Origin: Escherichia phage phT4A
Length of the DNA: 64,000 nt
Sequence record: NC_055712.1
Strand: one strand, 5' to 3'
Shown: positions 8,920 through 56,842 of the stretch, piece after piece
Position numbering within the stretch: position 1 is the stretch's first letter
Layout: each line of letters opens with the position of its first letter
The notes under the pieces: generated by a model
Told to the model about the DNA's origin: nothing
Database searches by the model: none
The model's input: only the letters and a program-made list of their open reading frames with translations
Position numbers and translations under genes: made by a program

Positions 8920-9534
8920 ATGCAATTTAGATTATATCTAGTAGAGTTTAAAACTTCTACGGGAATAAAAATATATGGAGGTAAACGCCATTCTCCATTT
9001 AATGATCCTAGACATGATTGTTATTGCGGATCTGGGGTATACATCAAACGAGCATTAAAAAAATATGGAAGAGAATGTATTGTTAATATACAATGGTCAA
9101 AACCGTTTCCAAACAAGGATTTATTAGCGGAAGCCGAAGAATTACTTGTTGATGAGTTGATAGCATCTTATGATAATTGTGTTAATTTAGTTCGTGGCGG
9201 TAAAGGAGGTGCTTCTTTTTATAATCCAGAAGATAACCCTAATTTTGGTTCTAAACGATCTATTGAATCTAAAATAAAGATGTCAGAAAAGGCAAAAAAT
9301 AGGGTTTATAGCGAGGAAGGACTAAAACGAAGACAGGAAGCCACTAGGGTCATGATTCAACACAGAAAGCCTCGTGATGTTTCTGGAAGCAAAAACCCAG
9401 CCGCACGAAGGGTAATTGTGGATGGAGTAGAATACTCAACATTGAAAGAATGTGGAGATCATTACGGGATAACTAAAAACTCCGTCTTTAGTCGAATAAA
9501 ATCTAAGAAATGGGAGGGATGGAATTATGCGTGA
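8920..9534 (+). CDS. putative Seg-like GIY-YIG homing endonuclease (degenerate GIY-YIG N-terminus, NUMOD-like C-terminal DNA-binding repeats)
   Basis: 204 aa inserted between gp13 and gp14 (no gene there in T4); N-terminus YLVEF..GIKIYGGKR, basic C-terminus with IVDGVEYSTLKECGDHYGITKNSVFSRI. Confidence 0.6.
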   Translation: MQFRLYLVEFKTSTGIKIYGGKRHSPFNDPRHDCYCGSGVYIKRALKKYGRECIVNIQWSKPFPNKDLLAEAEELLVDELIASYDNCVNLVRGGKGGASFYNPEDNPNFGSKRSIESKIKMSEKAKNRVYSEEGLKRRQEATRVMIQHRKPRDVSGSKNPAARRVIVDGVEYSTLKECGDHYGITKNSVFSRIKSKKWEGWNYA

Positions 9535-10273
9535 TTGGGATGATAATTTATTCGCACAGTTGGAATCTGGCGAAGGTGTTGATAATAGTTTAAAAACGGA
9601 AGTTACTAACAAATACGTTAACTGGTACAAGTATAACCCTACTCAACAGTTACATGATTCACTAACAGCCGAAGCAATTCAAATGAAATCTCCGGATATG
9701 TATTACGTCCGTCGAGAATTTGTTAATATTGATAAAATTTTGGGTGAAGACCGTGAATCGAAGTTTACAAAATCGTGGAAAATTGCAGCATACATCGATT
9801 CGTATGCAAACTACGAAGGACAGAGAGACTTTTACAGCAAATTCGGTATGATGTCAAACGATGAAATGACACTTGTGATCAATCCTCGTTTATTTGCACA
9901 TCAAACTGATGGCGGGATCCCTGTTCTGGGGGATTTGATTTATTTCCCTATGGATAATAGCCTGTTTGAAATTACATGGATTGAGTTTGATCCGTTCTTC
10001 CAGTTCGGTGATCGTCCTCAACGTAAAATCAACCTCGTTAAATTTATCTATACTGGTGAAGAATTGGATCCTAAACTGCAACGAAATGAAGGGATTAACC
10101 TTGCTCCAGATGCTGATCTGGATCTCGAACCTATTCGAAATCTTGATGGATTGGCTGATACCAATATTGAACAATACGAAGAAGATCAAGCCTTTGAAGA
10201 TGAAGGCGATGAATTCATTGAATCGTTTGATGTTGTTAACGGACGCGGATCACCGTTCGCACAGTTCCCATAA
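9527..10273 (+). CDS. 14: neck protein gp14
   Basis: 248 aa; NLFA(K/Q)LE, FTKxWKxAAY, GDLIYFPxDNSLFEIxW, LQRNEGIN as in T4 gp14. Confidence 0.92.
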   Translation: MRDWDDNLFAQLESGEGVDNSLKTEVTNKYVNWYKYNPTQQLHDSLTAEAIQMKSPDMYYVRREFVNIDKILGEDRESKFTKSWKIAAYIDSYANYEGQRDFYSKFGMMSNDEMTLVINPRLFAHQTDGGIPVLGDLIYFPMDNSLFEITWIEFDPFFQFGDRPQRKINLVKFIYTGEELDPKLQRNEGINLAPDADLDLEPIRNLDGLADTNIEQYEEDQAFEDEGDEFIESFDVVNGRGSPFAQFP

Positions 10274-19836: not shown

Positions 19837-21405
19837 ATGTCTAAGAAAAACGAATTGATGGAAAAATGGAACGATCTTCTGGAGTCTCAGGAAGGCTTAC
19901 CGGATATCGCTACCAAATCCAAAAAACAACTGATTGCTGCCATTATGGAAGCACAGGAAAAAGACGCAGAAGTTGATCCGGTTTACCGCGACGAGAAAAT
20001 CGTTGAATCCTTCGGTGGTTTCCTGGCGGAAGCTGAAATTGCTGGTGACCACGGTTACGACGCAACCAAAATCGCTTCTGGTAACTCAAGCGGTGCTATC
20101 ACCAACATCGGCCCTGCTGTAATCGGTATGGTTCGCCGTGCGATTCCTAACCTGATTGCGTTCGATATCTGCGGTGTTCAGCCTATGACTGGCCCTACTG
20201 GTCAGGTGTTCGCTCTCCGCGCAGTGTACGGCAAAGATCCGCTGGCTTCCGGTGCTAAAGAAGCATTCCATCCGATGTTCTCCCCGGATAGCATGTACTC
20301 CGGTCAGGGCGCGGCTCCGAGCAACGGCTTTAACGAACTGGCTTCCGGTACTGCTATCGCTGACGGCGCTATCGTGTTCCACGATTTCTCTGAAACTGGT
20401 CGTGTGTTCCTCCAGAACGTTTCTGGCTCTCCGGTTACTGTAACTGGTTCTACCGCCGATGCTCTGGATGCTGCTGTTATCGCCGAACAGGAAAAAGGTA
20501 CTCTGGCTGAAATTTCTTACGGTATGGCTACCAGTGTAGCAGAACTGCAAGAACAGTTCAACGGTTCTACTGGCAACCCGTGGAACGAAATGGGCTTCCG
20601 TATCGATAAGCAGGTTATCGAAGCACGTAGCCGCCAACTGAAAGCACAGTACTCTGTAGAACTGGCTCAGGATCTCCGCGCTGTTCACGGTATGGACGCT
20701 GACGCCGAACTGTCTGCTATTCTGGCAACCGAAATCATGCTGGAAATCAACCGCGAAATCGTTGACATGATCAACTATACCGCACAGGTTGGTAAAACTG
20801 GTTTCACTCAGACCGTTGGCTCTAAAGCTGGTGCGTTTGACTTCCAGGATCCGATTGATGTTCGTGGCGCTCGTTGGGCTGGTGAAAGCTACAAAGCTCT
20901 GCTGATTCAGATCGACAAAGAAGCAAACGAAATCGCACGTCAAACTGGTCGTGGTGCTGGTAACTTCATCATCGCTTCCCGTAACGTGGTTTCCGCTCTG
21001 GCTCGTATCGATAGCGGTATCACTCCGGCAGGTCAAGGTCTCCAGAAGACTCTGAACGTTGACACCACTAAAGCAGTATTCGCTGGTGTTCTGGGTGGCG
21101 TGTACAAAGTATACATCGACCAGTATGCACGTGGTGATTACTTCACCGTGGGTTACAAAGGCGATAACGAAATGGATGCTGGTATCTACTACGCTCCGTA
21201 TGTTGCGCTGACCCCGCTGCGTGGTTCTGATCCGAAGAACTTCCAGCCAGTAATGGGCTTCAAAACTCGTTACGGTGTAGGTATCAACCCGTTTGCGAAC
21301 TCTCGCTCTCAGGCTCCGTCCGACCGTATCACTTCTGGTATGATTACCAAAGAAATGTTCGGTAAAAACGCATACTTCCGCAAGGTTTATGTGAAAGGCT
21401 TATAA
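19837..21405 (+). CDS. 23: major capsid protein gp23
   Basis: 522 aa (T4 gp23 521 aa); near-identical blocks (GPAVxGMVRRAIPNLIAFDICGVQPM, GSDPKNFQPVMGFKTRYG). Confidence 0.98.
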   Translation: MSKKNELMEKWNDLLESQEGLPDIATKSKKQLIAAIMEAQEKDAEVDPVYRDEKIVESFGGFLAEAEIAGDHGYDATKIASGNSSGAITNIGPAVIGMVRRAIPNLIAFDICGVQPMTGPTGQVFALRAVYGKDPLASGAKEAFHPMFSPDSMYSGQGAAPSNGFNELASGTAIADGAIVFHDFSETGRVFLQNVSGSPVTVTGSTADALDAAVIAEQEKGTLAEISYGMATSVAELQEQFNGSTGNPWNEMGFRIDKQVIEARSRQLKAQYSVELAQDLRAVHGMDADAELSAILATEIMLEINREIVDMINYTAQVGKTGFTQTVGSKAGAFDFQDPIDVRGARWAGESYKALLIQIDKEANEIARQTGRGAGNFIIASRNVVSALARIDSGITPAGQGLQKTLNVDTTKAVFAGVLGGVYKVYIDQYARGDYFTVGYKGDNEMDAGIYYAPYVALTPLRGSDPKNFQPVMGFKTRYGVGINPFANSRSQAPSDRITSGMITKEMFGKNAYFRKVYVKGL

Positions 21406-21430
21406 GTTATTGAAAAATAACGATATTAAA

Positions 21431-21453
21431 GGGAACCTTCGGGTTCCCTTTTT
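21431..21453 (+). terminator. rho-independent terminator after gene 23 (gggaacc-ttcg-ggttccc + T5)
   Basis: Perfect 7-bp GC stem with ttcg loop and T tract. Confidence 0.7.
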
Positions 21454-21459
21454 CATTTC

Positions 21460-21467
21460 TATAAATA
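21460..21467 (+). promoter_or_regulatory. late promoter box TATAAATA upstream of the seg-like gene
   Basis: Exact TATAAATA. Confidence 0.5.
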
Positions 21468-21490
21468 GTGAAAACAATTGAGGCTATATT

Positions 21491-22126
21491 ATGAAACATA
21501 TTATCTACAAAATAACAAATTTGGTTAATAATAAAATTTATGTTGGTGCTCATTCAACAGAAGACATCAACGATTCATACATGGGTTCAGGGGTGGCTAT
21601 AAAGGCGGCTCAGAGGAAGTATGGTATCGATAAATTTATAAAAGAAATATTACATATTTTTGATACCCGTGAAGAAATGTATGAAAAAGAAAGAGAGATT
21701 GTTAATCTAGAATTTGTTAATAATCCACATACATATAATATGGGTATCGGTGGTGATGGTGGCCCTATGTTGGGTATGTTTCATTCAGAAGAGAAGAAAC
21801 AAGAAATTTCCAAGATTACTAAAGAGAGAATGACAGATGAAGTAAAATCTCGTCTCTCTAAACTTAAAAAGGGTAAACCACAGTCCAAAGAATCCAACAG
21901 GAAGCGCTCAGAGACGTTAAAAGCTAAATATATGAATGGACGTATAGACAGAGAGTATAAACCTCTCACAGAAGCGCACAAGGCGAAATTAGGCCGTTCT
22001 GTATCGATAGATGGAGTTGTATACTCATCCGGATCGGAGGCGGCAAAATCCCTTAGTATGTCCCACTCTGGTTTAAAATATCGGATTAATAGCGACAAAT
22101 ACCCTACCTGGAAATTTGTTGCATAA
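21491..22126 (+). CDS. GIY-YIG homing endonuclease, SegD-like
   Basis: 211 aa; canonical N-terminal GIY-YIG module (IIYKITNLVNNKIYVGAHS ... GSG), basic C-terminal DNA-binding tail; sits between 23 and 24 as segD does in T4. Confidence 0.8.
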   Translation: MKHIIYKITNLVNNKIYVGAHSTEDINDSYMGSGVAIKAAQRKYGIDKFIKEILHIFDTREEMYEKEREIVNLEFVNNPHTYNMGIGGDGGPMLGMFHSEEKKQEISKITKERMTDEVKSRLSKLKKGKPQSKESNRKRSETLKAKYMNGRIDREYKPLTEAHKAKLGRSVSIDGVVYSSGSEAAKSLSMSHSGLKYRINSDKYPTWKFVA

Positions 22127-22158
22127 ATACCATTATACACTTTACGCAGGAACATAAA

Positions 22159-28071: not shown

Positions 28072-28074
28072 ATA
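28067..28074 (+). promoter_or_regulatory. late promoter box TATAAATA upstream of the hoc-like gene
   Basis: Exact TATAAATA 25 nt upstream of the ATG at 28100. Confidence 0.55.
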
Positions 28075-36458: not shown

Positions 36459-36485
36459 AATAAACCTAAAACGTGGAGTACGTTT

Positions 36486-37919
36486 ATGAACAACAAAACT
36501 TTCGAAGAACTGAACAGCATCATCACTTCCGTAGATTCCTATAAGGTTTCTCACTGGTCGCAATATCCAACTGGCTCCGAAGAGGCGCTGTTTTATATTG
36601 AATCTCGTGGTGGTAAATTTGATCAAGTAGTTACGGCTGGCTGTAACCGCCTTGCGCAAATCCTATCACGTCCGGTGACTATGGAAAACGTAGATTTTGC
36701 TAATCGGTTGTACAAAATGCACTTTGGGCGCGAAATCTTCAACTACAAAGGTTGGAAAGAAATTGCAGAACTGGGTTACATCCCTCTTGAATTCAGAGCG
36801 ATTCCGGAAGGAACCCCAGTAGCGGTTAAAAATCCGGTTGCAACTTTCCATGCTGGGAAAAATGCGCTGTGGTTAGCAGGACACGTAGAAACCCTGGCGA
36901 TCAGGGGAGTATGGTTCCCTTCAACCGTAGCAACTCTATCCCGCGAATGTAAAAAAGTGTTGAAGAAATATCTCAAGAAAACCTCCGATCTCGAAGGTGA
37001 AGCATTTGATATGGTATTACGTACCCGTTTGCATGACTTCGGCGCACGTGGAACCTCTTCTGCTGAATCTGCTGGTATTGGTGGCCTTGCTCATCTGTAT
37101 AACTTCCTCGGTACTGATACCGTAGAAGCGCTGATTATGGCTATCTCTCTGTTTGAAGATTGTCAGAAAGCGTTTGATGATGGTGAAATGGCGGCTGGTA
37201 TTTCAATTCCTGCTCGCGAACATTCCACTACCGTTTCTTACGGCAAAGAAAACGAAGACCTTGCATACAAAAACAGTATTGAGATCTTCGGTGAAGGGAT
37301 GTATGCATGTGTGTATGATTCCTGGGATTTTAAAGCGGCGGTTCGCCGTATCGCAGAATATAAAGATTCTATTCTTTCTAAGGGCGGTACTCTGGTAGTT
37401 CGTCCGGATTCTGGCGATATGGTAGACAATATCATGTACGCTCTTGAAGAACTGGGCCGTATCTTTGGCTATACAGTGAACTCAAAAGGGTATAAAGTAC
37501 TACACCCAGCAGTAAGGATCATTCAAGGCGATGAAATTCATGGCCCTGAAACAATCAATCGGGTGTTGAACTGGATGGAGTCTAACCGTTGGGCGTCTGA
37601 AAACATCGCGTTTGGTATGGGCGGCGGATTGCTTCAAGAAGTTACCCGCGACACTCAAAAATATGCGATGAAAATGTGCGCAATCAAAATTAACGGTGTG
37701 TGGACTGGTGTGTATAAATGTCCAAAAGGCGCTGAATGGAAAAAGAGTAAAAAAGGGTTGTTAATGACTATCACTGATGGTGTTAACTTTAAAACCATTG
37801 ATACTCTGGAACAGAAAGTGCCGGAAGGCTGGAAAGATGCTATGATCACATACTATGTCAACGGAAAGATTACTGCCCGTGACACTTTAGAGGAAATTAG
37901 GAACCGTGCCGGGATTTAG
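36486..37919 (+). CDS. nadV: nicotinamide phosphoribosyltransferase family protein (NadV/NAMPT-like)
   Basis: 477 aa; N-terminal DSYKVSHW signature, HDFGARG, GxGGGLLQ-type C-terminal block typical of the NAMPT family. Confidence 0.88.
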   Translation: MNNKTFEELNSIITSVDSYKVSHWSQYPTGSEEALFYIESRGGKFDQVVTAGCNRLAQILSRPVTMENVDFANRLYKMHFGREIFNYKGWKEIAELGYIPLEFRAIPEGTPVAVKNPVATFHAGKNALWLAGHVETLAIRGVWFPSTVATLSRECKKVLKKYLKKTSDLEGEAFDMVLRTRLHDFGARGTSSAESAGIGGLAHLYNFLGTDTVEALIMAISLFEDCQKAFDDGEMAAGISIPAREHSTTVSYGKENEDLAYKNSIEIFGEGMYACVYDSWDFKAAVRRIAEYKDSILSKGGTLVVRPDSGDMVDNIMYALEELGRIFGYTVNSKGYKVLHPAVRIIQGDEIHGPETINRVLNWMESNRWASENIAFGMGGGLLQEVTRDTQKYAMKMCAIKINGVWTGVYKCPKGAEWKKSKKGLLMTITDGVNFKTIDTLEQKVPEGWKDAMITYYVNGKITARDTLEEIRNRAGI

Positions 37920-38208
37920 TATCCGCAAAAACGACAAAGGAACCGTGATTTTCTATGACAACATGCCCCTTGTAGCTCGCAAGGGGCTTTTTGCTAAAAT
38001 CGCTGGGTATTCCTTTAAACTGGAAGAAGTCAACGACGAAACACTAAAAGAGATCGTAAGAATTGCCTTACAGTTAAGAGGTAAGAAAGACGAACAAAAA
38101 GCTATTGACATGATCAATAAATTGGGTGAAACTCAATGCTTCATAGTGAATCGTGGTTACAAGTACGATACCATTGCAAAATTTGAAAAAGGGCTTTGTG
38201 AATTATGA
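37906..38208 (+). CDS. hypothetical protein
   Basis: 100 aa ORF overlapping the nadV end; start uncertain. Confidence 0.4.
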   Translation: MPGFSIRKNDKGTVIFYDNMPLVARKGLFAKIAGYSFKLEEVNDETLKEIVRIALQLRGKKDEQKAIDMINKLGETQCFIVNRGYKYDTIAKFEKGLCEL

Positions 38209-39854: not shown

Positions 39855-40113
39855 AAGTAGAAAAANNNNNNNNNNNNNNNNNNNNNNNNNNNNNNNNNNN
39901 NNNNNNNNNNNNNNNNNNNNNNNNNNNNNNNNNNNNNNNNNNNNNNNNNNNNNNNNNNNNNNNNNAAAACGTAGGTTATGGACAGGATATACCCTGGAGG
40001 CTTTACAGGCCGACCCAGAACGTTCTAAGCTACTTCCTTACATTGATGTTCTGATTGATGGTAAGTATGAAAAAGATTTGCCAACAGAAAAAGCCGTTTC
40101 GCGGTTCAGATAA
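39851..40113 (+). CDS. nrdG: ORF interrupted by scaffold gap; the C-terminal 46 codons resemble the NrdG (anaerobic RNR activase) C-terminus
   Basis: MKVEK start overlaps the gp49 stop; after the gap ..WTGYTLEAL...VLIDGKYEKDL resembles E. coli NrdG ..WTGYKLDEL...VLVDGKF.QDL. Confidence 0.45.
39866..39965. other. scaffold gap (100 N)
   Basis: Exactly 100 N; true size unknown. Confidence 0.99.
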
Positions 40114-47245: not shown

Positions 47246-47345
47246 NNNNNNNNNNNNNNNNNNNNNNNNNNNNNNNNNNNNNNNNNNNNNNNNNNNNNNN
47301 NNNNNNNNNNNNNNNNNNNNNNNNNNNNNNNNNNNNNNNNNNNNN
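47246..47345. other. scaffold gap (100 N)
   Basis: Exactly 100 N; probably hides the gp35 3' end, possibly gp36, and the first codons of the distal fibre gene. Confidence 0.99.
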
Positions 47346-50300
47346 TTTAGCAAAAATTCAATTCCTACGTAGCACAGTTGCGGGGAAAACACCTACTACA
47401 AGTCAGCTTGCAGATGGTGAACTGGCGATCAACATGGCTGATTATGCCATTTACACGAAAAATGGTTCTTCGATCGTTCAGTTAGCGGGTAAAGGTATCC
47501 CAGAAACAAATACCAAAAAATTAACAGTAAATGGGCCTAGTGCTCTTAATGATACCGTTACCGTAGCGGAAGGTAAAACTATTACTTTCACCAACGCGGA
47601 TTTGAGCGGGGGTATGGTTCGTCATATCACTGGTAAAAACGCGCTTAATGATGGTTGGTACATCGGTTCTGGTGGTGAGAGCAATAAAGGGTTTTTAGAA
47701 ATCGGTACAATTGATGACGGTGATGAAGAGATCCGTTTCGTTTCCCGTGGTTCTGGTGATACTGTTCGTCGTACTCTGAAACTTATTGATTCCGGTGGTA
47801 ACACTCGCGTACCAGGTAACATCTATATTGATGAAGCTATGGGCGGTGGTGGTTCTGCTTTTATTTCAAAAAACAAAGCATATTTCGGTGCTGGCGGTGC
47901 TGATATCTATATGCGTAACACTGCTGGCGGTGCGACAAATCAGTTAACGATCACTGATGGCGGTGAATTGCTGTTTCAAGCAAAACCTGTATACTGGGAC
48001 GGTCGTAAACCGACTTTAACCGAATTGGGGATCGGGCGGGTTGAAAACGCGCGTCAAATGCAGCAAGACAATTGGCCTATAACTACAGGTAATGAAACCC
48101 GATGGGTTAAAGTTGCTCTTTTAAAAGATCCTGGCTCAGGTCATAGTCGCTTGCAACTGATGGTGACTAACGGCGGTAACTATGGTTCTACACGCGGATC
48201 GTTCGATTTTATCGATTGTTCTGCTCGTAGTATGCCTTCAACATTAACGGCTGCAAATATTCGTTCTTATCTGCAAATTCGTCGATTGGGCGATCCGGCA
48301 ATGGATGACACTAACCAGATGCGTTATAGTTTGGTTCGCACATCCGAAGGTTTGGAATTGTGGTTTACTCAAAGATCGTTCATCGGTAGTACAAAAATTG
48401 CTCTGTTATCTACGGCTGGCGTGACTGAATATTATATTCCTAGTGGATATACATCACAAACAACCGCTCCGGATGGTTTGATCGAGAGTAAGCCTATTCG
48501 TATCTATGACGAAATGAACAAACCTAGCCTTGACGATGGTACTGATGGTATTCTGTCTGTTGCTAAAGGTGGTACAGGCGCAAGTACAGCGGCTGCTGCT
48601 CGCACAAACTTAGGTTTGGGTACTGCTGCAACCCGTGATGTTGGTACAGGTTCCGGACAAGTAATGCTTGTTGGTGCTTACGGTTTAGGCGGTAAGGGTA
48701 CATCATATAGCATCGCAAATGCTCGCGACTTCCTGAAACAACTGCGTACTGATGGTTCTCAGTTCATGCGAAATACGCTTGGTACTGACATTAACTATGG
48801 TATGGGCGCAAGTTTTTATAGTTCCGTATCAGATGTTCATGCAGTGATCTCGGTTGATTGGAATACTGGTCGCGTTAAAGTTGGTGCAACTAATGATACT
48901 AACCTTAACTCAGATACAGGAAGAATCAACTTCCAGGAACTGTACGGTACTGCATTTAAACCGACTCCGGATGACGTAGGGGCTGTTGCACGTGCTGGTG
49001 ATACGATGTCTGGTGATCTGACGATCTCTAAAGTGTCGCCTGGTTTCCATTTGAATGCTGAGAGCGGAAACTCCGTAATTTGGTTTAAGTATAAAGGGGT
49101 TGAAAGTGGTGCTGTGTGGGCGTTGCCTAATACTGCCTCTTCTGGTGAAGTTCGCATTCGTGCCAGAACGTCGGGCGGAACGACTGGGGGCGAATTCTCA
49201 TTTAAATCAGACGGTACATTTACATCACCTGGTAATATCAATATTACTAGCGGCGCTTTCAACGGTAAAAGTGTCAATACTCAGTATGCGAACTTTAATA
49301 ACACAAGTTCAACAACAACCGAACAAACCGTTTCTATTAGTGGTTCGCAGCACACTCCTCTGTTACTGAATAGACCGACTAACTCGAACTTGTCTATCGG
49401 GTTTAAACTTTCCGGAATGAACATGAAACGTTTGGGTATCGATGTAAACGGTGATATTCGTTACGGTGAAGCCGAAAACCAGACACAAAACGCATGGCTG
49501 TTGACTTCGGATACCATAAACAGATGGAGTGTTAACTTCGGGCGTGATATTAACGTTGCAGGTGTAGTTAATTCAACTGGTGGATTTACTGGCCCTGTTA
49601 CTGCATATGATTTGACCGGGGTAACTCAGGATCTTGATGCTTTAACATTGAACAATGCCGAACCAGGACATATTAAAGTTTATTCGTGCCGTAGTATGGG
49701 TGGCGGTGATAACATCACCAATAAACCTTCCGGCGTAGGTGGTAACTTTATTGTTATCGTTGAATGTCTCCGTAAAGTCGGCGATACTGATTACACTAAC
49801 CGTCAAGTATTACGCGCATCGGACAATAAACGCAGTTGGGAACGTTGGTTTACTGTTAGCGGTACTGCTAAAGCCTGGACACCGTGGAGAATGAACGTTG
49901 TTAGCGGAAACGATGACGATGTATCATTTAAATCTGTTACCACAACTACAGGAAACCTGAACAGTGGAAACGATCTGATTGTTGCGAACAACGCTCGCGT
50001 AGGTGGCAACTTAGGGTTAGGTGGTGCTTCTTCCACGACATACACTGATAAAGGTGTTGTGATTGGTAACGGTAGTGCGCTGTTAGAATCCACTGATGGT
50101 CGCATGATTATTGGTAGTTCTGGTGCTGGTCGTGCTGTTGAATTGCGTCCTGGTGGCCCAACTCAAACCAACAACGGGATCAAAGTGACTGCTACCTCTG
50201 GAAGTGGTGGTGATACTGCGATCGAGTATGCGCAAGGGGTGAAAATCCGGGCAAATAACGGTGGTGCGTTGATTATTTCTGCTAAAGCTGGACAAACGAT

Positions 50301-51219
50301 TTATCTACGTCCTCAAGGAGATACATCCAGCACAAACGAAACAAGGATTGATTCTAGTGGTAACATGATAGTTAATGGTAATATCAGTGCAAACGGAAAT
50401 ATGTCTGCTACTGGTACGTTAACTGTTTCTGGTGCTACTACATTAAACAACACATTAACGGTTAATAATGTAGGGCCAATCGAGAAACGGGGGATCAGGA
50501 CGTATACAGAAGGTTCTGTTACTGTCAACGAAACCGACGGCATTACGATGTTTGGTAATGGCACAATTCATGGCACAATGCGATTAGTTGAGAGAGTGAA
50601 TAATACTACTTTCATCGGTCTGCAAACTTCCATTAATGACACTACAAACGGTTGGTTTGAATTCCACCACACAGGAAAATTCAAATCAAACAATATCGAA
50701 GCCTCTGGTAATATTGTTAGTTTGACTGGTTCCATTGGTGCTGTTGGTGCATTGACTGTAACGGCTCCTTCTTCTGATAACGGTACTGACCATATTTGGT
50801 TCCGTAACTCTGATGGATCTGAACGTGGTGTTATCTATATGCCAGGCAATGCTAATATTGGCGGTTTCCGCGTTCGTGGTGTGGAATGGCAATTTGATGG
50901 CGGTGCTAGTCAGTTTATCGGCCCTGGTGCTCGTTGGCGTATTCACCCTGATGGTAATATTCAGGCTGATGTTTTTAGCGGTTATCTGAATAACTACATC
51001 AATGATCGGTTTAACGCGTGTGCTCAGTGGGTTCGTACTGGTGCTCAACAGGACTTTGGTCAGATCGGTCGTCCTGCTCCTGGTTTAACAGTTCCTGCTG
51101 GTTGGGTTTTAGTTGGTCTTAACGCCAACGGTAACGAAGCTAACCAGAACATGCAGTTAATCGGTGGTCGTTTGCAGGTATGGAAGAATAACGTTCAATG
51201 GGTTGATTCTGCAACTTGA
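47346..51219 (+). CDS. 37: long tail fibre distal subunit, gp37-type (fibre A; 5' end in gap)
   Basis: Begins (truncated) LAKIQFLRSTVAGKTPT.SQLADGELAINM, matching the T4 gp37 N-terminus MATLKQIQFKRS..AGTRP...LAEGELAINL; about 1290 aa; no C-terminal chaperone domain; followed by a gp38-like chaperone. Confidence 0.8.
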
Positions 51220-51226
51220 TAAAATA

Positions 51227-51240
51227 GGGGCTTCGGCCCC
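51227..51240 (+). terminator. GC hairpin (ggggc-ttcg-gcccc) after fibre A, weak T tract
   Basis: Same hairpin type as other terminators in the window but followed by ttcattc. Confidence 0.35.
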
Positions 51241-51261
51241 TTCATTCTTAAAGGTAAAATA

Positions 51262-51663
51262 ATGATTGTTAAACAAATGAAAGGTATTCGCTGGCATCAT
51301 AATTTTGAAGGTGGTGCTTACTATCGTGATTGTAATGACAAGTGCTGGTATGAATTTCGTAATTCTTTGGATAAAAATTCCCATATCATTATAGTTGATG
51401 CTAAAACCAATAAAATCATTAACTATTATAACGGTGATGATCCTACGATGATTGGATTGTTTGCTGATAAAGAAATGATTCTTAATGTGTATCAGCTATC
51501 AGAATTTCCTGTTAATGACTGGGGAGAATTCTCTAAGCGAGAATTTAAGTTCGAAGATGATAAGGTAGTCATGACGAAAGATGTTGAACTTCCGAAATCT
51601 CGAACAAAAGAAGATATCATGGCAGATTTGATAAAACTTCAAAAAGAGCTAGAGGTAATGTAA
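51262..51663 (+). CDS. 38: tail fibre assembly chaperone, gp38-like
   Basis: 133 aa directly after fibre A; pattern similarity to the T4 gp38 chaperone (..IIIVDAKTNKIINYY.. vs ..YAVVFDERTQDWIY..; ..FPVNDWGEF.. vs ..FDEPGEFDIW..). Confidence 0.5.
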   Translation: MIVKQMKGIRWHHNFEGGAYYRDCNDKCWYEFRNSLDKNSHIIIVDAKTNKIINYYNGDDPTMIGLFADKEMILNVYQLSEFPVNDWGEFSKREFKFEDDKVVMTKDVELPKSRTKEDIMADLIKLQKELEVM

Positions 51664-51669
51664 TTTCTA

Positions 51670-51747
51670 AGGCTACCTATATGGTAGCCTTTTTGTTGTA
51701 TGCTAAATATACCTATAGCAACCTAAGAAGAGTCTTATAAAATGGCT
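51670..51747 (+). repeat. intergenic element copy 1: terminator hairpin (aggctacc...ggtagcct + T5) + AT box + ATGGCT start
   Basis: About 90% identical to 56445-56513. Confidence 0.8.
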
Positions 51748-51847
51748 NNNNNNNNNNNNNNNNNNNNNNNNNNNNNNNNNNNNNNNNNNNNNNNNNNNNN
51801 NNNNNNNNNNNNNNNNNNNNNNNNNNNNNNNNNNNNNNNNNNNNNNN
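51748..51847. other. scaffold gap (100 N)
   Basis: Exactly 100 N; flanks share ggct, compatible with a direct join giving ATG GCT GAT TTA (MADL...). Confidence 0.99.
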
Positions 51848-54800
51848 GGCTGATTTAGCAAAAATTCAATTCCTACGTAGCACAGTTACGGGGAAAACAC
51901 CTACTACAAGTCAGCTTGCAGATGGTGAACTGGCGATCAACATGGCTGATTATGCCATTTACACGAAAAATGGTTCTTCGATCGTTCAGTTAGCGGGTAA
52001 AGGTATCCCAGAAACAAATACCAAAAAATTAACAGTTGATGGGCCTAGTGCTCTTAATGATACCGTTACCGTAGCGGAAGGTAAAACTATTACTTTCACC
52101 AACGAGGATTTAAGTGGTGGAATAACTCGTCATATCGTTGGCAAATGCGCCACTAATGATGGTTGGTACATCGGTTCCGGTGGTACAAGCAACAATGGTA
52201 TTCTTGAAATCGGTACTATTGATGACGGCGTTGAAACCATCCAGATCGTACAGCGCGGCGCAGGCAACGTTGAAGCCAGAAAGTTAGTCTTGCTTGATGG
52301 TTCGGGTAATACGAATCTTCCTGGTGATTTAAGATTAACCACCAATAAAGCTGTTAAAATTTCGAATGGAAGCACTCTTACACTAGAAATGGGCGTAGGT
52401 GCTAACGATGTATACATTAAAAACCTGAAAGGCTCTGGCGTTCTTCAATTAACCAATGATAGTAATCTGTCGTTCAGAAATTACCAGGTTTATTATGCCA
52501 TGAGTGGAAAAGGCCCTGGTAAAGATGGTACTCTTCTGACTAATGTAGAAAACGAGCGCCAACTTAAACAGGATAATTTCCCTATAACTACAGGCAACGA
52601 AGCTCGGTGGACTAAAGTTGCTCTTTTAGTAGACCCCGGCTCAGGGCCGAGTCGCTTGCAACTGATGGTGACGAACGGCGGTAACTTTGGTTCTACGCGT
52701 GGCTCTATCGACTTTATCGATTGTAGCGCTAGAAACTTTCCCGCAACATTAACAAGCAGTAACATTCGTTCTTATCTGCAAATTCGTCGAATCGGCGATC
52801 CTGGACTTGATGGCACAAACCAATTACGTTATAGTCTAGTTCGTACCTCTGAGGGTTTAGAACTGTGGTTTACACAACGCGCGTTTATTAGTGGTGTTAA
52901 AGTTGCTCTGCTGTCTATTGATGGTAATACTAAATATTATCTGCCTACTGGTTACACGACTACTTCAACTGCTCCAGAAGGTTTAGTTGAGAGTACGGCT
53001 ATTCGTATCTATGATGAGGTAAACAAGCCTAATCTCGACGATGGTACTGATGGTATTCTGTCTATTGCTAAAGGTGGTACAGGTGCAAGTACAGTAGATG
53101 CCGCTCGCACAAACTTAGGTTTGGGTACGGCTGCAACCCGTGATGTTGGTACAGGTTCCGGACAAGTAATGCTTGTTGGTGCTTACGGTTTAGGCGGTAA
53201 GGGTAAATCCTATAGTAGTTCAACCTCTCGCGATTACCTGAAACAACTGCGTGCTGATGGTTCTCAGTTCATGCGAAATACGCTTGGTACTGAAATTAAC
53301 TATGGTATGGGCGCAAGTTTTTATAGTTCCGTATCAGATGTTCATGCGGTGATCTCGGTCGATTGGAATACTGGACGCGTTAAAGTTGGTGCGACTAATG
53401 ATGCTAACTTGAACTCAGATACCGGAAAAATCAGCTCTCAGGAACTGTACGGTACTGCATTTAAACCAACTCCGGATGACGTAGGGGCTGTTGCTCGTAC
53501 TGGTGATACAATGTCTGGTGATTTGCTTATCAGTAAAGAGTCACCTGGGTTATTTTTGAATGCCACTAATGATACCGGAAACTCTGTAATTTGGTTTAGA
53601 AACAAAGGAGTTGAGACAGGTGCTGTATGGGCAATACCTAACACCGAGTCTTCGGGTGAGGTTCGAATTCGTGCTAGAACGACTGCTGGGGTCACAGGCG
53701 GCGAGTTCAAATTTAAATCTGACGGTACATTTACATCACCTGGTGATGTAAATATCACCAGCGGTGCTTTCAACGGTAAAAGTATCAACACTCAGTATGC
53801 GAACTTTAATAACACAAGTTCAACCACAACCGAACAAACCGTTACTATTAGTGGTTCACAGCACACTCCGCTGTTACTGGATAGACCGACTAACGCGAAC
53901 TTGTCTATCGGGTTTAAACTTTCCGGAATGAACATGAAACGTTTGGGTATTGATGTAAACGGTGATATTCATTACGGTGAAGCAGAAAACCAGACAAACA
54001 ACGCATGGCTGTTGACTTCGGATACAGTAAACAGATGGGTTGTTAACTTTGGTCGTGATATTAACGTTGCTGGTGTGGTTAATTCGACTGGTGGATTTGC
54101 TGGCCCTGTCGCAGCGTATGATTTGGCTGATGTTAAACTAGATCTTAATGATTTAACGCTAACTGGCGCTACCCCAGGCCATGTTAAAGTTTATTCATGC
54201 CCTAGTATGGGTGGCGGTAATAACATCACCAATAAACCTTCTGGCGTCGGTGGTAACTTTATTGTTATTGTTGAATGTCTCCGTAAAATAAACGATACCG
54301 ATTACACTAACCGTCAAGTATTACGCACATCTGATAGTAAACGCAGTTGGGAACGTTGGTTAACTGTTAGCGGTACTTCTAAAATCTGGACACCGTGGCG
54401 TGTTAATATTGTTAATGGGAATGATGACGATGTATCATTTAAATCCGTTACCACGACTACAGGAAACCTGAACAGCGGAAATGATTTGATTGTTGCTAAC
54501 AACGCTCGCGTAGGTGGTAACTTAGGGTTAGGTGGTGCTTCTTCAACGAAATACGCTGATAAAGGTGTTGTGATTGGCAAAGGTAGTGCTCTGTTAGAAA
54601 CTACTGATGGTCGTGTGATTATTGGTAGTTCTGGTGGTGGTAATGCTGTTGAATTGCGTCCCGGTGGCCCAACTCAAACCAACAACAGGATCAAAGTAAC
54701 TGCTACCTCTGGAAGTGGTGGTGATACTGCGATCGAGTATGAACAAGGCGCTAAAATTCGTGCTAATAATGGTGGTGATTTGATTGTTTCTGCTAAAGCA

Positions 54801-55823
54801 GGTCAAGCAATTTATCTGCGACCGCAAGGTGATGCATCCAGCACAAACGAAACCCGTATTGATGCAAACGGTAGTATCACGATTAACGGCAATATTAACG
54901 CCAACGGTACATTAACTTGTACTGGTGGTGCTGTTAACGGAGACTTGACTGTATCAGGAAAAGTAGATATCACTGGAAACCAGTTAAAAACTACATCGCT
55001 CTGGGTTACTGGAGATGCTGCTGTTAACGGTGTTTTAACTGTTGATGGAAGGGCTAGGTTTAATCAAGAGTTCATTGTATCAACTTCGGTTAACGTCCAG
55101 AACACTGGTAACAGTCATTTGGTCTTCCGTAAAGCTGATGGTACAGAAAAAGGACTTATTTGGGCTGATGAGCCTGGTAGCGTTAGTATAAGAGCAGGTG
55201 GTGTCTCTGGGCCAACGTGGAATTTCTGGAACAGTGGTTCTTGCCAATTCCCAGGTGCTATTAGTAACTTTAATGGTGTTAATAGTACTACTAATTACCC
55301 TGGCGGCGGAAGTGGCGCGTATTTAAATACCGCTGGCTTAACAAGTAGATTTAGTAATGGTGCTTATGTTTCCTTATACTTCCAAGAATATGTAGGAAAT
55401 TATCACCAGGCTATTCTTAATGTTAACGGCTATGGTCGAGATGACAATTTCTATTTCAGGGCCGGCGGTGACTTCTTCTGTACTCGTAACGGTTCTTTTG
55501 ATAACGTTGAGATTCGTTCTGACCGTAGAGCCAAATCGGATATCAAAGTTATTGAAAATGCTTTAGAAAAGGTTGAAACATTATCTGGTAATACTTATGA
55601 ACTTCATAACACTTCTGGCGGTACTACTCGTTCTGCTGGGTTGATTGCTCAGGAAGTTCAAGAAATCTTACCGGAAGCAGTTACTCAAGATAATGAAGAA
55701 GATGGCGGTATGCTTCGTCTGAATTATAACTCAGTAATTGCACTTCTTGTTGAATCTGTTAAAGAGCTTTCTGCCGAAGTTAAAAATCTTAAAGCAGAAA
55801 TTGAAGAACTTAAATCTAAATAA
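51848..55823 (+). CDS. second gp37-type distal tail fibre (fibre B) with C-terminal S74-type intramolecular chaperone domain
   Basis: Reads (M)ADLAKIQFLRSTVTGKTPT... from the gap edge; co-linear with fibre A at 70-95% aa identity over about 1100 aa, then a different tip. Confidence 0.8.
55518..55823 (+). other. C-terminal intramolecular chaperone (peptidase S74-like) domain of fibre B
   Basis: SDRRAKSDIK.IENALEKVETLSG.TYEL......RSAGLIAQEVQEILPEAV...........LNYNSVIALLVESVKEL matches the T5 pb1 / endosialidase CIMCD consensus. Confidence 0.8.
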
Positions 55824-55826
55824 TGC

Positions 55827-55850
55827 ATGGGGCTTCGGCCCCATCTTTTA
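55827..55850 (+). terminator. hairpin (atggggc-ttcg-gccccat) after fibre B
   Basis: 7-bp stem, ttcg loop, then ctttt. Confidence 0.5.
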
Positions 55851-55862
55851 GGAGAAATAACT

Positions 55863-56390
55863 ATGGCAGTAACAGGGCCGTGGGTCGGAAGTTCAGCAAA
55901 GGCTGAAACTGGTGAGTCGTGGATGGCTCAAGCTGGGGCCAAATTAAGAATAGGGACACCGTTTTGGATGTCTAATATGATTGGACAAAGCGTATTCCAT
56001 TTAATTTTCAGAATTAACTATGCACAGGGTTCTTCTGGTGATCCATCTAGATATAGAGGATTCTTTAAAAGAGGGTTAGCAGTAAGTGTAGGAGATTCTG
56101 CTAACCAACCGACGCTGAATGCGTTCCCTGGCGGAGATGTGGGTTCACTAGTAGCTATTACAAATATCAAAGGCGACCCTTATTGCCTTTCTATTTGGAA
56201 TGGTCAAGATAGGCGAGTTAAAGTTTCTATTTTTAGAAGCGATGGAGCCGAACAATACGATGTTTATTTTAGCGGAACTACTATGGCTGACGGGTGGAGA
56301 AGGTATAAATGCGAAGATGCTGGAGGTCTCAATGGGTATTTTGAGGCTAGAATGGATAACCAGTTTGGTGCTTTATTAGAATATGTTTGA
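55863..56390 (+). CDS. hypothetical protein in the gp38 position downstream of fibre B (possible fibre accessory/adhesin)
   Basis: 175 aa from the ATG at 55863 with AGGAG RBS; Gly/Ser/Trp-rich; no family recognised. Confidence 0.5.
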   Translation: MAVTGPWVGSSAKAETGESWMAQAGAKLRIGTPFWMSNMIGQSVFHLIFRINYAQGSSGDPSRYRGFFKRGLAVSVGDSANQPTLNAFPGGDVGSLVAITNIKGDPYCLSIWNGQDRRVKVSIFRSDGAEQYDVYFSGTTMADGWRRYKCEDAGGLNGYFEARMDNQFGALLEYV

Positions 56391-56444
56391 TAGGTAAACC
56401 AACAAATTCACCTCATAATATTAAATAGATTAAAAGGCTACCAT

Positions 56445-56513
56445 ACAGGTAGCCTTTTTGTTGTATCCTAAATATACGTATAGTAACCTAAGAAGAGTCT
56501 TATAAAAATGGCT
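56445..56513 (+). repeat. intergenic element copy 2 (terminator hairpin + AT box + ATGGCT holin start)
   Basis: About 90% identical to 51670-51747. Confidence 0.8.
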
Positions 56514-56742
56514 GAGAGAAATCCCGTAGATAAACTAGCCTTATTTGATCGGGTAATCTCGTTTGTGATGGGTGTGAAAACATGGAAACAATTGCTGATA
56601 AAAATAATTCTAATAATGGTTATGTTTCTTATGGTAGTAACTTGGTACAAATGGACTGATATATTCCCGATGATAAAAGGTGCCCTTGTAGTCGATACAA
56701 GGGCTATCGAAATGGAAAGAACTGAAAAGTTTAATCAATCCG
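56508..56742 (+). other. t: 5' portion of holin gene t, duplicated on the left side of a scaffold gap (probable unmerged contig overlap)
   Basis: 56506-56742 is identical base-for-base to 56843-57079. Confidence 0.85.
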
Positions 56743-56842
56743 NNNNNNNNNNNNNNNNNNNNNNNNNNNNNNNNNNNNNNNNNNNNNNNNNNNNNNNNNN
56801 NNNNNNNNNNNNNNNNNNNNNNNNNNNNNNNNNNNNNNNNNN
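56743..56842. other. scaffold gap (100 N), probably spurious
   Basis: Flanked by a 237-bp exact overlap. Confidence 0.95.

Follow-up and report, generated by a model that had tools for sequence, protein, structure and literature searches.

The window analysed here, a stretch of 64,000 nt from Escherichia phage phT4A (NC_055712.1), contains a complete gene for a protein of the NAMPT family, which is referred to below as nadV. The gene begins with an ATG codon and ends with a stop codon at positions 37917-37919. The coordinates of nadV, of its putative signals, and of other features of the window and of the closely related phage VAC13 are given in Table 1.

Table 1. Positions of nadV, its predicted partner gene, and other features discussed in the text (window coordinates unless VAC13 is named)
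Feature	Position	Strand	Basis
nadV, 477 aa; very probably Nampt, the first NARP2 enzyme (predicted activity)	36486-37919	+	ORF listing, domains, residues, tree
Shine-Dalgarno sequence GGAG, 6 nt 5' of the nadV ATG	36476-36479	+	Read from the sequence; predicted function
Terminator-like hairpin GCCCCTTGTAGCTCGCAAGGGGC, then TTTTT	37965-37987	+	Consensus scan; 9-bp stem, 6 G-C pairs
natV, 353 aa, "nicotinamide nucleotide adenylyl-transferase NadM family"	VAC13 158836-159897	opposite to nadV	VAC13 annotation
Candidate ADP-ribosyltransferase, 105 aa	31860-32177	+	VAC13 annotation ("putative ADP-ribosyltransferase")
DprA-like protein, 193 aa	34568-35149	+	PHROG 768 ("DprA-like DNA recombination-mediator")
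P-loop protein, 279 aa	29998-30837	-	Pfam Zeta_toxin (2.8e-7, above cut-off)
Runs of exactly 100 N	39866-39965; 47246-47345; 51748-51847; 56743-56842		
Distal long-tail-fibre module (gp37-like, gp38-like, holin start), two copies	47346-51747; 51848-56742		
Second gp38-like protein	55827-56390		
Segments without a megablast match to VAC13	8926-9598; 21399-22143		

The original prediction, which described a NAMPT-family enzyme with the motifs DSYKVSHW and HDFGARG, was borne out by the ORF itself and by all four collections searched. The two motifs occupy residues 17-24 and 183-189 of NadV. Pfam analysis revealed the domains NAMPT_N (PF18127; 2.6e-22, residues 12-95) and NAPRTase (PF04095; 6.9e-41, residues 181-426). 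The score against the NCBIfam equivalog NF006629 was 463.7 bits, which is above the cut-off of 405, and the protein matched PHROG 448 at 7.6e-166. In the PDB, the matches were as follows: 2.9e-104 (Xanthomonas Nampt, 7yqo); approximately 1e-87 (human NAMPT); and, far weaker, 2.5e-58 and 2.2e-48 (the solved Namat proteins 9w5x and 9ke8). As judged from these comparisons, the assignment of NadV to the NAMPT family is far above chance and secure.

At the DNA level, nadV is 100% identical to the annotated nadV genes of phages PTP25 and VAC13 and 99.9% identical to that of phage Matisse. Among the best 30 of 115 phage records, nearly all of them Klebsiella phages, the identity was 99.4-100%, and the gene was present at no less than 95% DNA identity in 111 phage records. 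The NadV proteins of related genera share about 70-76% identity with that of the window.

The whole window aligns at 98-99.8% identity with positions 21757-85466 of Klebsiella phage vB_KpnM_VAC13 (MZ322895.1; Straboviridae, Slopekvirus); the tail-fibre region diverges more from VAC13 than the remainder. The gene is located in a variable block of the T4-like genome, between hoc/inh and nrdC/gene 49. The co-directional genes of this block are arranged in the following order: the candidate ADP-ribosyltransferase, Srd, rnlB, the DprA-like protein, three small ORFs, nadV, dam, nrdC, and gene 49. The description of the locus as an accessory island was thus only partly appropriate. It agrees with the variable character of the block, but nadV has the same G+C content as its surroundings and is retained in the 111 records mentioned above.

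The T4-type late promoter motif TATAAATA was absent between positions 28074 and 42496, and for this reason the nadV block is probably transcribed early or in the middle of infection. The terminator-like hairpin listed in Table 1 is located 46 nt past the stop codon of nadV. In the VAC13 annotation, the following ORF has a start codon (window position 37963) that overlaps with this hairpin, which might act in transcription termination or in the control of translation. We regard the hairpin as no more than a lead, since the number of terminator-like sites in the region is no higher than expected from shuffled sequences.

Members of the NAMPT family encoded by phages include Nampt and Namat, and the position of NadV relative to these two groups was assessed by phylogeny and by comparison of the substrate pocket. 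The set of 21 sequences aligned with MAFFT included the window protein and NadV of KVP40 (NC_005083, 138214-139707), nine further homologues, seven of them encoded by named T4-like phages and two by contigs, and the Nampt proteins of Xanthomonas and human, the human sequence being identical to 2gvg. Five Namat proteins were included as well: SPbetaL1 9w5x, 9ke8, and the products of the Adps-adjacent genes of FelixO1, BPS10C, and Staphylococcus phage A5W. NadV shares the following identities with these proteins: 50% (KVP40 NadV); 43% (Xanthomonas Nampt); 39% (human NAMPT); and 29-33% (the five Namat proteins). In the neighbour-joining tree, a small one that is not of the maximum-likelihood type (455 columns, 200 bootstraps), the Namat proteins formed a clade supported by 100% of the bootstraps. 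NadV was placed on the other side of this split, together with the Nampt proteins of T4-like phages, KVP40, Xanthomonas, and human. The comparison with the Nampt and Namat clades, which had been proposed along with the original prediction, therefore puts NadV on the Nampt side.

Seventeen positions were tabulated in the alignment. The 14 catalytic or substrate-binding positions among them are all intact in NadV in comparison with the human, Xanthomonas, and KVP40 enzymes. These are, in human numbering, Y18, F193, R196, D219, H247, R311, D313, G353, D354, G383, G384, R392, D393, and K400.

The specificity of Namat for ADPR-PP has been attributed to a "selectivity clamp", which consists of the aromatic residues F392 and Y396 on a helix and of a longer beta1-beta2 loop; the Namat mutants that mimic Nampt are F392G and Y396K (PMC12774641). 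In NadV, the corresponding helix reads GMGGGLLQEVTRD and has Gly and Glu at the positions of SPbetaL1 F392 and Y396. The clamp loop is of the short Nampt form, ESRGGK-FD, as in KVP40 and Xanthomonas. The helix of KVP40 NadV, GMGGGLLQQLDRD, agrees with that of the window protein. Four of the five Namat proteins, including the solved one from SPbetaL1, display the pattern G-x-G-S-[FY]-x-Y-x-[YF]-x-T-R-D and a loop that is 4-7 residues longer. The remaining one, 9ke8, also has the longer loop, yet carries Gln and Arg at the clamp positions. Both the tree and the published diagnostic residues identify NadV as Nampt-type; its predicted preference for substrate follows from homology and from the pocket. 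The presence of Gly/Glu versus Phe/Tyr at the clamp positions may serve as a quick sequence test to tell Nampt from Namat.

The cellular Nampt enzymes of Xanthomonas campestris (7yqo) and human (2gvg) share with NadV the fold family and the catalytic residues, including the autophosphorylated histidine (human H247). Unlike these enzymes, NadV is encoded by a phage, has Glu instead of Lys at human position 389, and lacks the eukaryotic-type long loop after beta-1. The Namat proteins of NARP1 (SPbetaL1 9w5x, Bas63/FelixO1 type) are homologous TIM-barrel phosphoribosyltransferases with the same catalytic core, but they differ from NadV by their separate clade, the aromatic clamp, the longer clamp loop, and the adjacent Adps gene.

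The statement that no NMNAT or Prs-like gene occurs in the window was confirmed by two kinds of search. No NatV, NadR, PnuC, or Adps above chance level was detected in the window by tblastn with NatV of KVP40 and VAC13, NadR and PnuC of KVP40, and three phage Adps proteins as queries. Likewise, hmmsearch of all six-frame ORFs of at least 50 aa in the window against small Adps and NMNAT-domain HMMs gave only chance-level matches. The missing partner in a 64-kb window is uninformative, since the genes of NARP2 are normally located far apart. Such a missing neighbour is the normal situation, because natV (94507-95532) and nadV (138214-139707) of KVP40 are also separated by 43 kb.

The situation is different in the complete genomes of near-identical relatives. 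VAC13 encodes NatV, the sole NMNAT in its genome, with an N-terminal CTP_transf_like domain and a C-terminal NUDIX domain (Pfam), the motifs HYGH and SSTNLR, and a Nudix box. This protein shares 40% identity with NatV of KVP40 over its full length (348 aa, E 1e-82) and matches the solved NadM-Nudix enzymes end to end: 1.5e-51 (2qjo, Synechocystis slr0787); and 3.1e-43 (2qjt, Francisella). The HxGH and ISSTxxR-type motifs and the Nudix box are common to NatV and these enzymes. Unlike the latter, NatV is phage-encoded and falls below the NCBIfam equivalog cut-offs; its score for the bacterial bifunctional enzyme was 257.7 bits versus the required 397, as expected of a diverged phage copy.

A natV gene with at least 95% DNA identity occurs in 111 phage records, as many as contain nadV at this threshold. 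Both genes occur together in all near-identical genomes examined, namely those of PTP25, VAC13, Snake_ER16, KP1, and KP15 as well as two IMG/VR contigs. In complete Slopekvirus genomes, they are separated by approximately 73 kb or 101 kb, depending on the way round the circularly permuted genome. By analogy with these near-identical relatives, natV is expected in the genome from which the window is derived. Adps or Prs could not be found in the whole VAC13 genome or in the window (best E 0.32 in tblastn and 0.28 with a three-sequence Adps HMM).

The presence of NARP3, which comprises NadR-like and PnuC-like proteins, was also considered and rejected, as neither a NadR-type kinase domain nor PnuC occurs in VAC13 or in the window. 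The KVP40 PnuC query gave no match in either of them, and the KVP40 NadR query matched only the HxGH stretch of natV (E 5.6e-5).

NARP2 was described in KVP40 as a pathway composed of Nampt and Nmnat; it was shown to increase NAD+ and to eliminate the defence exerted by Thoeris and DSR2 (Osterman et al., 2024; bioRxiv 10.1101/2024.02.11.579819). According to the same study, 94% of phages with a KVP40-type Nampt also encode Nmnat. The KVP40 Nampt makes some NAD+ from ADPR-PP in vitro, with PRPP being the preferred substrate. The Slopekvirus pair resembles that of KVP40 in most respects. The same two enzymes with the same domain architectures are present, the identities over the full length being 50% for NadV and 40% for NatV. 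KVP40 NadV has the Nampt-type pocket GMGGGLLQ-x-x-x-RD and the short loop, as does the window protein, and both phages are T4-like myoviruses with unlinked nadV and natV. The differences are that KVP40 is a Schizotequatrovirus infecting Vibrio, unlike the Klebsiella-associated Slopekvirus represented by the window, and that KVP40 also encodes NadR and PnuC, both of which are missing in VAC13.

Taken with the residues and the tree, this makes it very probable that the gene is nadV and that it codes for the Nampt of phage NAD+ reconstitution pathway 2 (NARP2). The original prediction left open which pathway applies and suggested looking for NMNAT, Nudix, or Prs-like genes beyond the window. That question no longer stands as it was put: near-identical complete genomes carry a canonical natV and lack Adps and Prs, and NadV groups with bona fide Nampt and does not possess the Namat clamp. 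Both observations had been named along with the original prediction as grounds for ordinary salvage, and the pathway is very probably ordinary NARP2 salvage.

The proposed mechanism is as follows. NAD+-cleaving effectors of host defence systems (TIR, SIR2, SEFIR) convert NAD+ to ADP-ribose and nicotinamide. NadV would combine nicotinamide with PRPP, supplied by the host Prs, to give NMN, and the N-terminal HxGH nucleotidyltransferase domain of NatV would produce NAD+ from NMN and ATP. NatV ends in a Nudix domain of the NadM-Nudix family, members of which are annotated and described as ADP-ribose pyrophosphatases. This domain could turn ADP-ribose into ribose-5-phosphate, from which PRPP would be formed via the host Prs. 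As a net result, NAD+ would be kept up during infection, including infection of hosts with NAD+-cleaving defences. That the enzymes have these activities, draw on host PRPP, and counteract host defence is inferred from the experiments on KVP40 and from knowledge of the protein families.

The window nadV is already known as a catalogued NARP2 Nampt and represents one more copy of it, since Table S2 of Osterman et al. (10.1101/2024.02.11.579819) labels the protein of Matisse, KP15, and KP27 as "Nmnat-associated". Over the stored part of these table entries, approximately the first 400 residues, the sequences are identical to NadV from the window. There is no difference of substance between nadV of the window and nadV of these three phages; the window is another isolate or assembly.

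The Pfam domains detected in NadV are common to Nampt and Namat, so that annotation alone cannot separate the two, and the KVP40 Nampt has the weak in vitro activity with ADPR-PP mentioned above. NadV might accordingly be a Namat that uses nicotinamide and ADPR-pyrophosphate provided by an unrecognised Adps, as in NARP1. This reading is extremely improbable and already close to refuted. NadV falls outside the fully supported Namat clade, it lacks the aromatic clamp residues and has a short clamp loop, and the solved Namat proteins are weaker PDB matches than Nampt. Also, the neighbours of nadV are unrelated, whereas in the NARP1-type phages FelixO1, BPS10C, and A5W the Prs-like Adps gene is located directly upstream of the transferase gene or one gene away. 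The searches of the window and of the whole VAC13 genome for an Adps or Prs-like ORF yielded only the chance-level E values given above. The view that the ORF encodes a NAMPT homologue that has decayed or lost its activity and plays no enzymatic role has a virtually negligible probability; no observation spoke in its favour, and the pseudogene reading was rejected. The ORF is of full length, all catalytic and substrate-binding positions are preserved, the sequence is nearly invariant in more than 100 isolates, and its score exceeds the equivalog cut-off.

It is also conceivable, if improbable, that NadV functions largely alone and that host NadR, or PncC/NadD/NadE, turn NMN into NAD+, with NatV being dispensable or having another role. 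Enterobacteria possess NadR and PncC. In addition, nadV and natV lie on opposite strands at the distances given above and are thus not co-transcribed, and roughly 6% of the phages whose Nampt is of the KVP40 type do not encode Nmnat. Against this, natV is conserved across the genus as much as nadV, the nadV-natV pair recurs in many T4-like genera, and NadV is present in every NadM-containing phage. Moreover, the KVP40 enzymes were tested jointly, and E. coli NadR alone fails against the depletion caused by Sir2-HerA. Compared with this option, joint action of NadV and NatV in NARP2 is the reading that we prefer.

The significance of this result beyond correct annotation is small. For phage therapy of Klebsiella infections, Slopekviruses would be expected to resist NAD+-depleting defences, such as Thoeris, DSR, SIR2-HerA, and similar systems. 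The cost of this expected resistance would be the consumption of host PRPP.

Several genes upstream of nadV deserve mention. The candidate ADP-ribosyltransferase gene is located 4.3 kb upstream of nadV. Its product belongs to PHROG 2110, a group of unknown function, and gave no sequence match in Pfam, NCBIfam, or PDB. The pattern YYHG...VFFTAD...LYRVV in this ORF, inspected by eye, may point to a resemblance to the very small Arr (rifampin ADP-ribosyltransferase) family. If Arr-like, the protein would consume NAD+. The 193-aa DprA-like protein displays a weak, sub-threshold match to Pfam DNA_processg_A (1.6e-4, residues 10-54) and may contain a SLOG-type nucleotide-binding domain instead of being a true DprA. 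The gene for the 279-aa P-loop protein is annotated as hypothetical in VAC13 and is the sole minus-strand gene in the block.

The Arr-like candidate, the DprA/SLOG-like protein, and the zeta-toxin-like kinase of Slopekviruses are encoded approximately 1.3-6 kb upstream of nadV, which lies in a probably non-late block. NadV could be partly uncoupled from NatV and serve a local NAD+/ADP-ribose module, beyond NARP2 counter-defence alone; for example, it might supply NAD+ or NMN to a phage ADP-ribosyltransferase. We regard such an arrangement as quite improbable.

Some observations were made on other phages in the course of these comparisons. Beside nadV and natV, KVP40 (105001-155000 and another region) carries a NARP3-like pair, nadR and pnuC, and also encodes a Sir2 homologue. 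KVP40.0259 encodes a second PF04095-type protein of 297 aa, located among QueC-like and radical-SAM genes. The same arrangement occurs in Vibrio phage D484, where the paralogue is annotated as a second "nicotinamide phosphoribosyl transferase". The match between this short PF04095-type paralogue and NadV of the window is weak (E 3.8e-5). Megablast with nadV of Vibrio phage D484 did not reach KVP40.

The window is a scaffolded draft with four runs of N (Table 1). At the first of these gaps, about 4.95 kb of the VAC13 sequence is absent from the window (nrdD through nrdG, VAC13 60990-65942). An exact pattern spanning this first gap had no match among the viral contigs searched. The flanks of the last gap have about 238 bp of VAC13 sequence in common, which points to contig ends that had not been merged. 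The distal long-tail-fibre module is present twice, with identities to VAC13 of about 94% for one copy and about 86-92% for the second. For the second tail-fibre segment, no match above 94.9% was found in the phage collection. The doubled module may stem from co-assembly of two strains that differ in their receptor-binding alleles or from an artefact of scaffolding. Exact copies of the second gp38-like protein were detected in a 128-kb contig of JGI sample 3300015157 and in a 3-kb contig of Logan run SRR22111975, the layout of which is unlike that of the window scaffold. A scan of metagenomes with NatV did not recover this JGI contig, and the representative NatV was assigned to different samples. 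Finally, the two segments without a megablast match to VAC13 are flanked on either side by 99% identical sequence and probably represent short stretches inserted or replaced among the structural genes.
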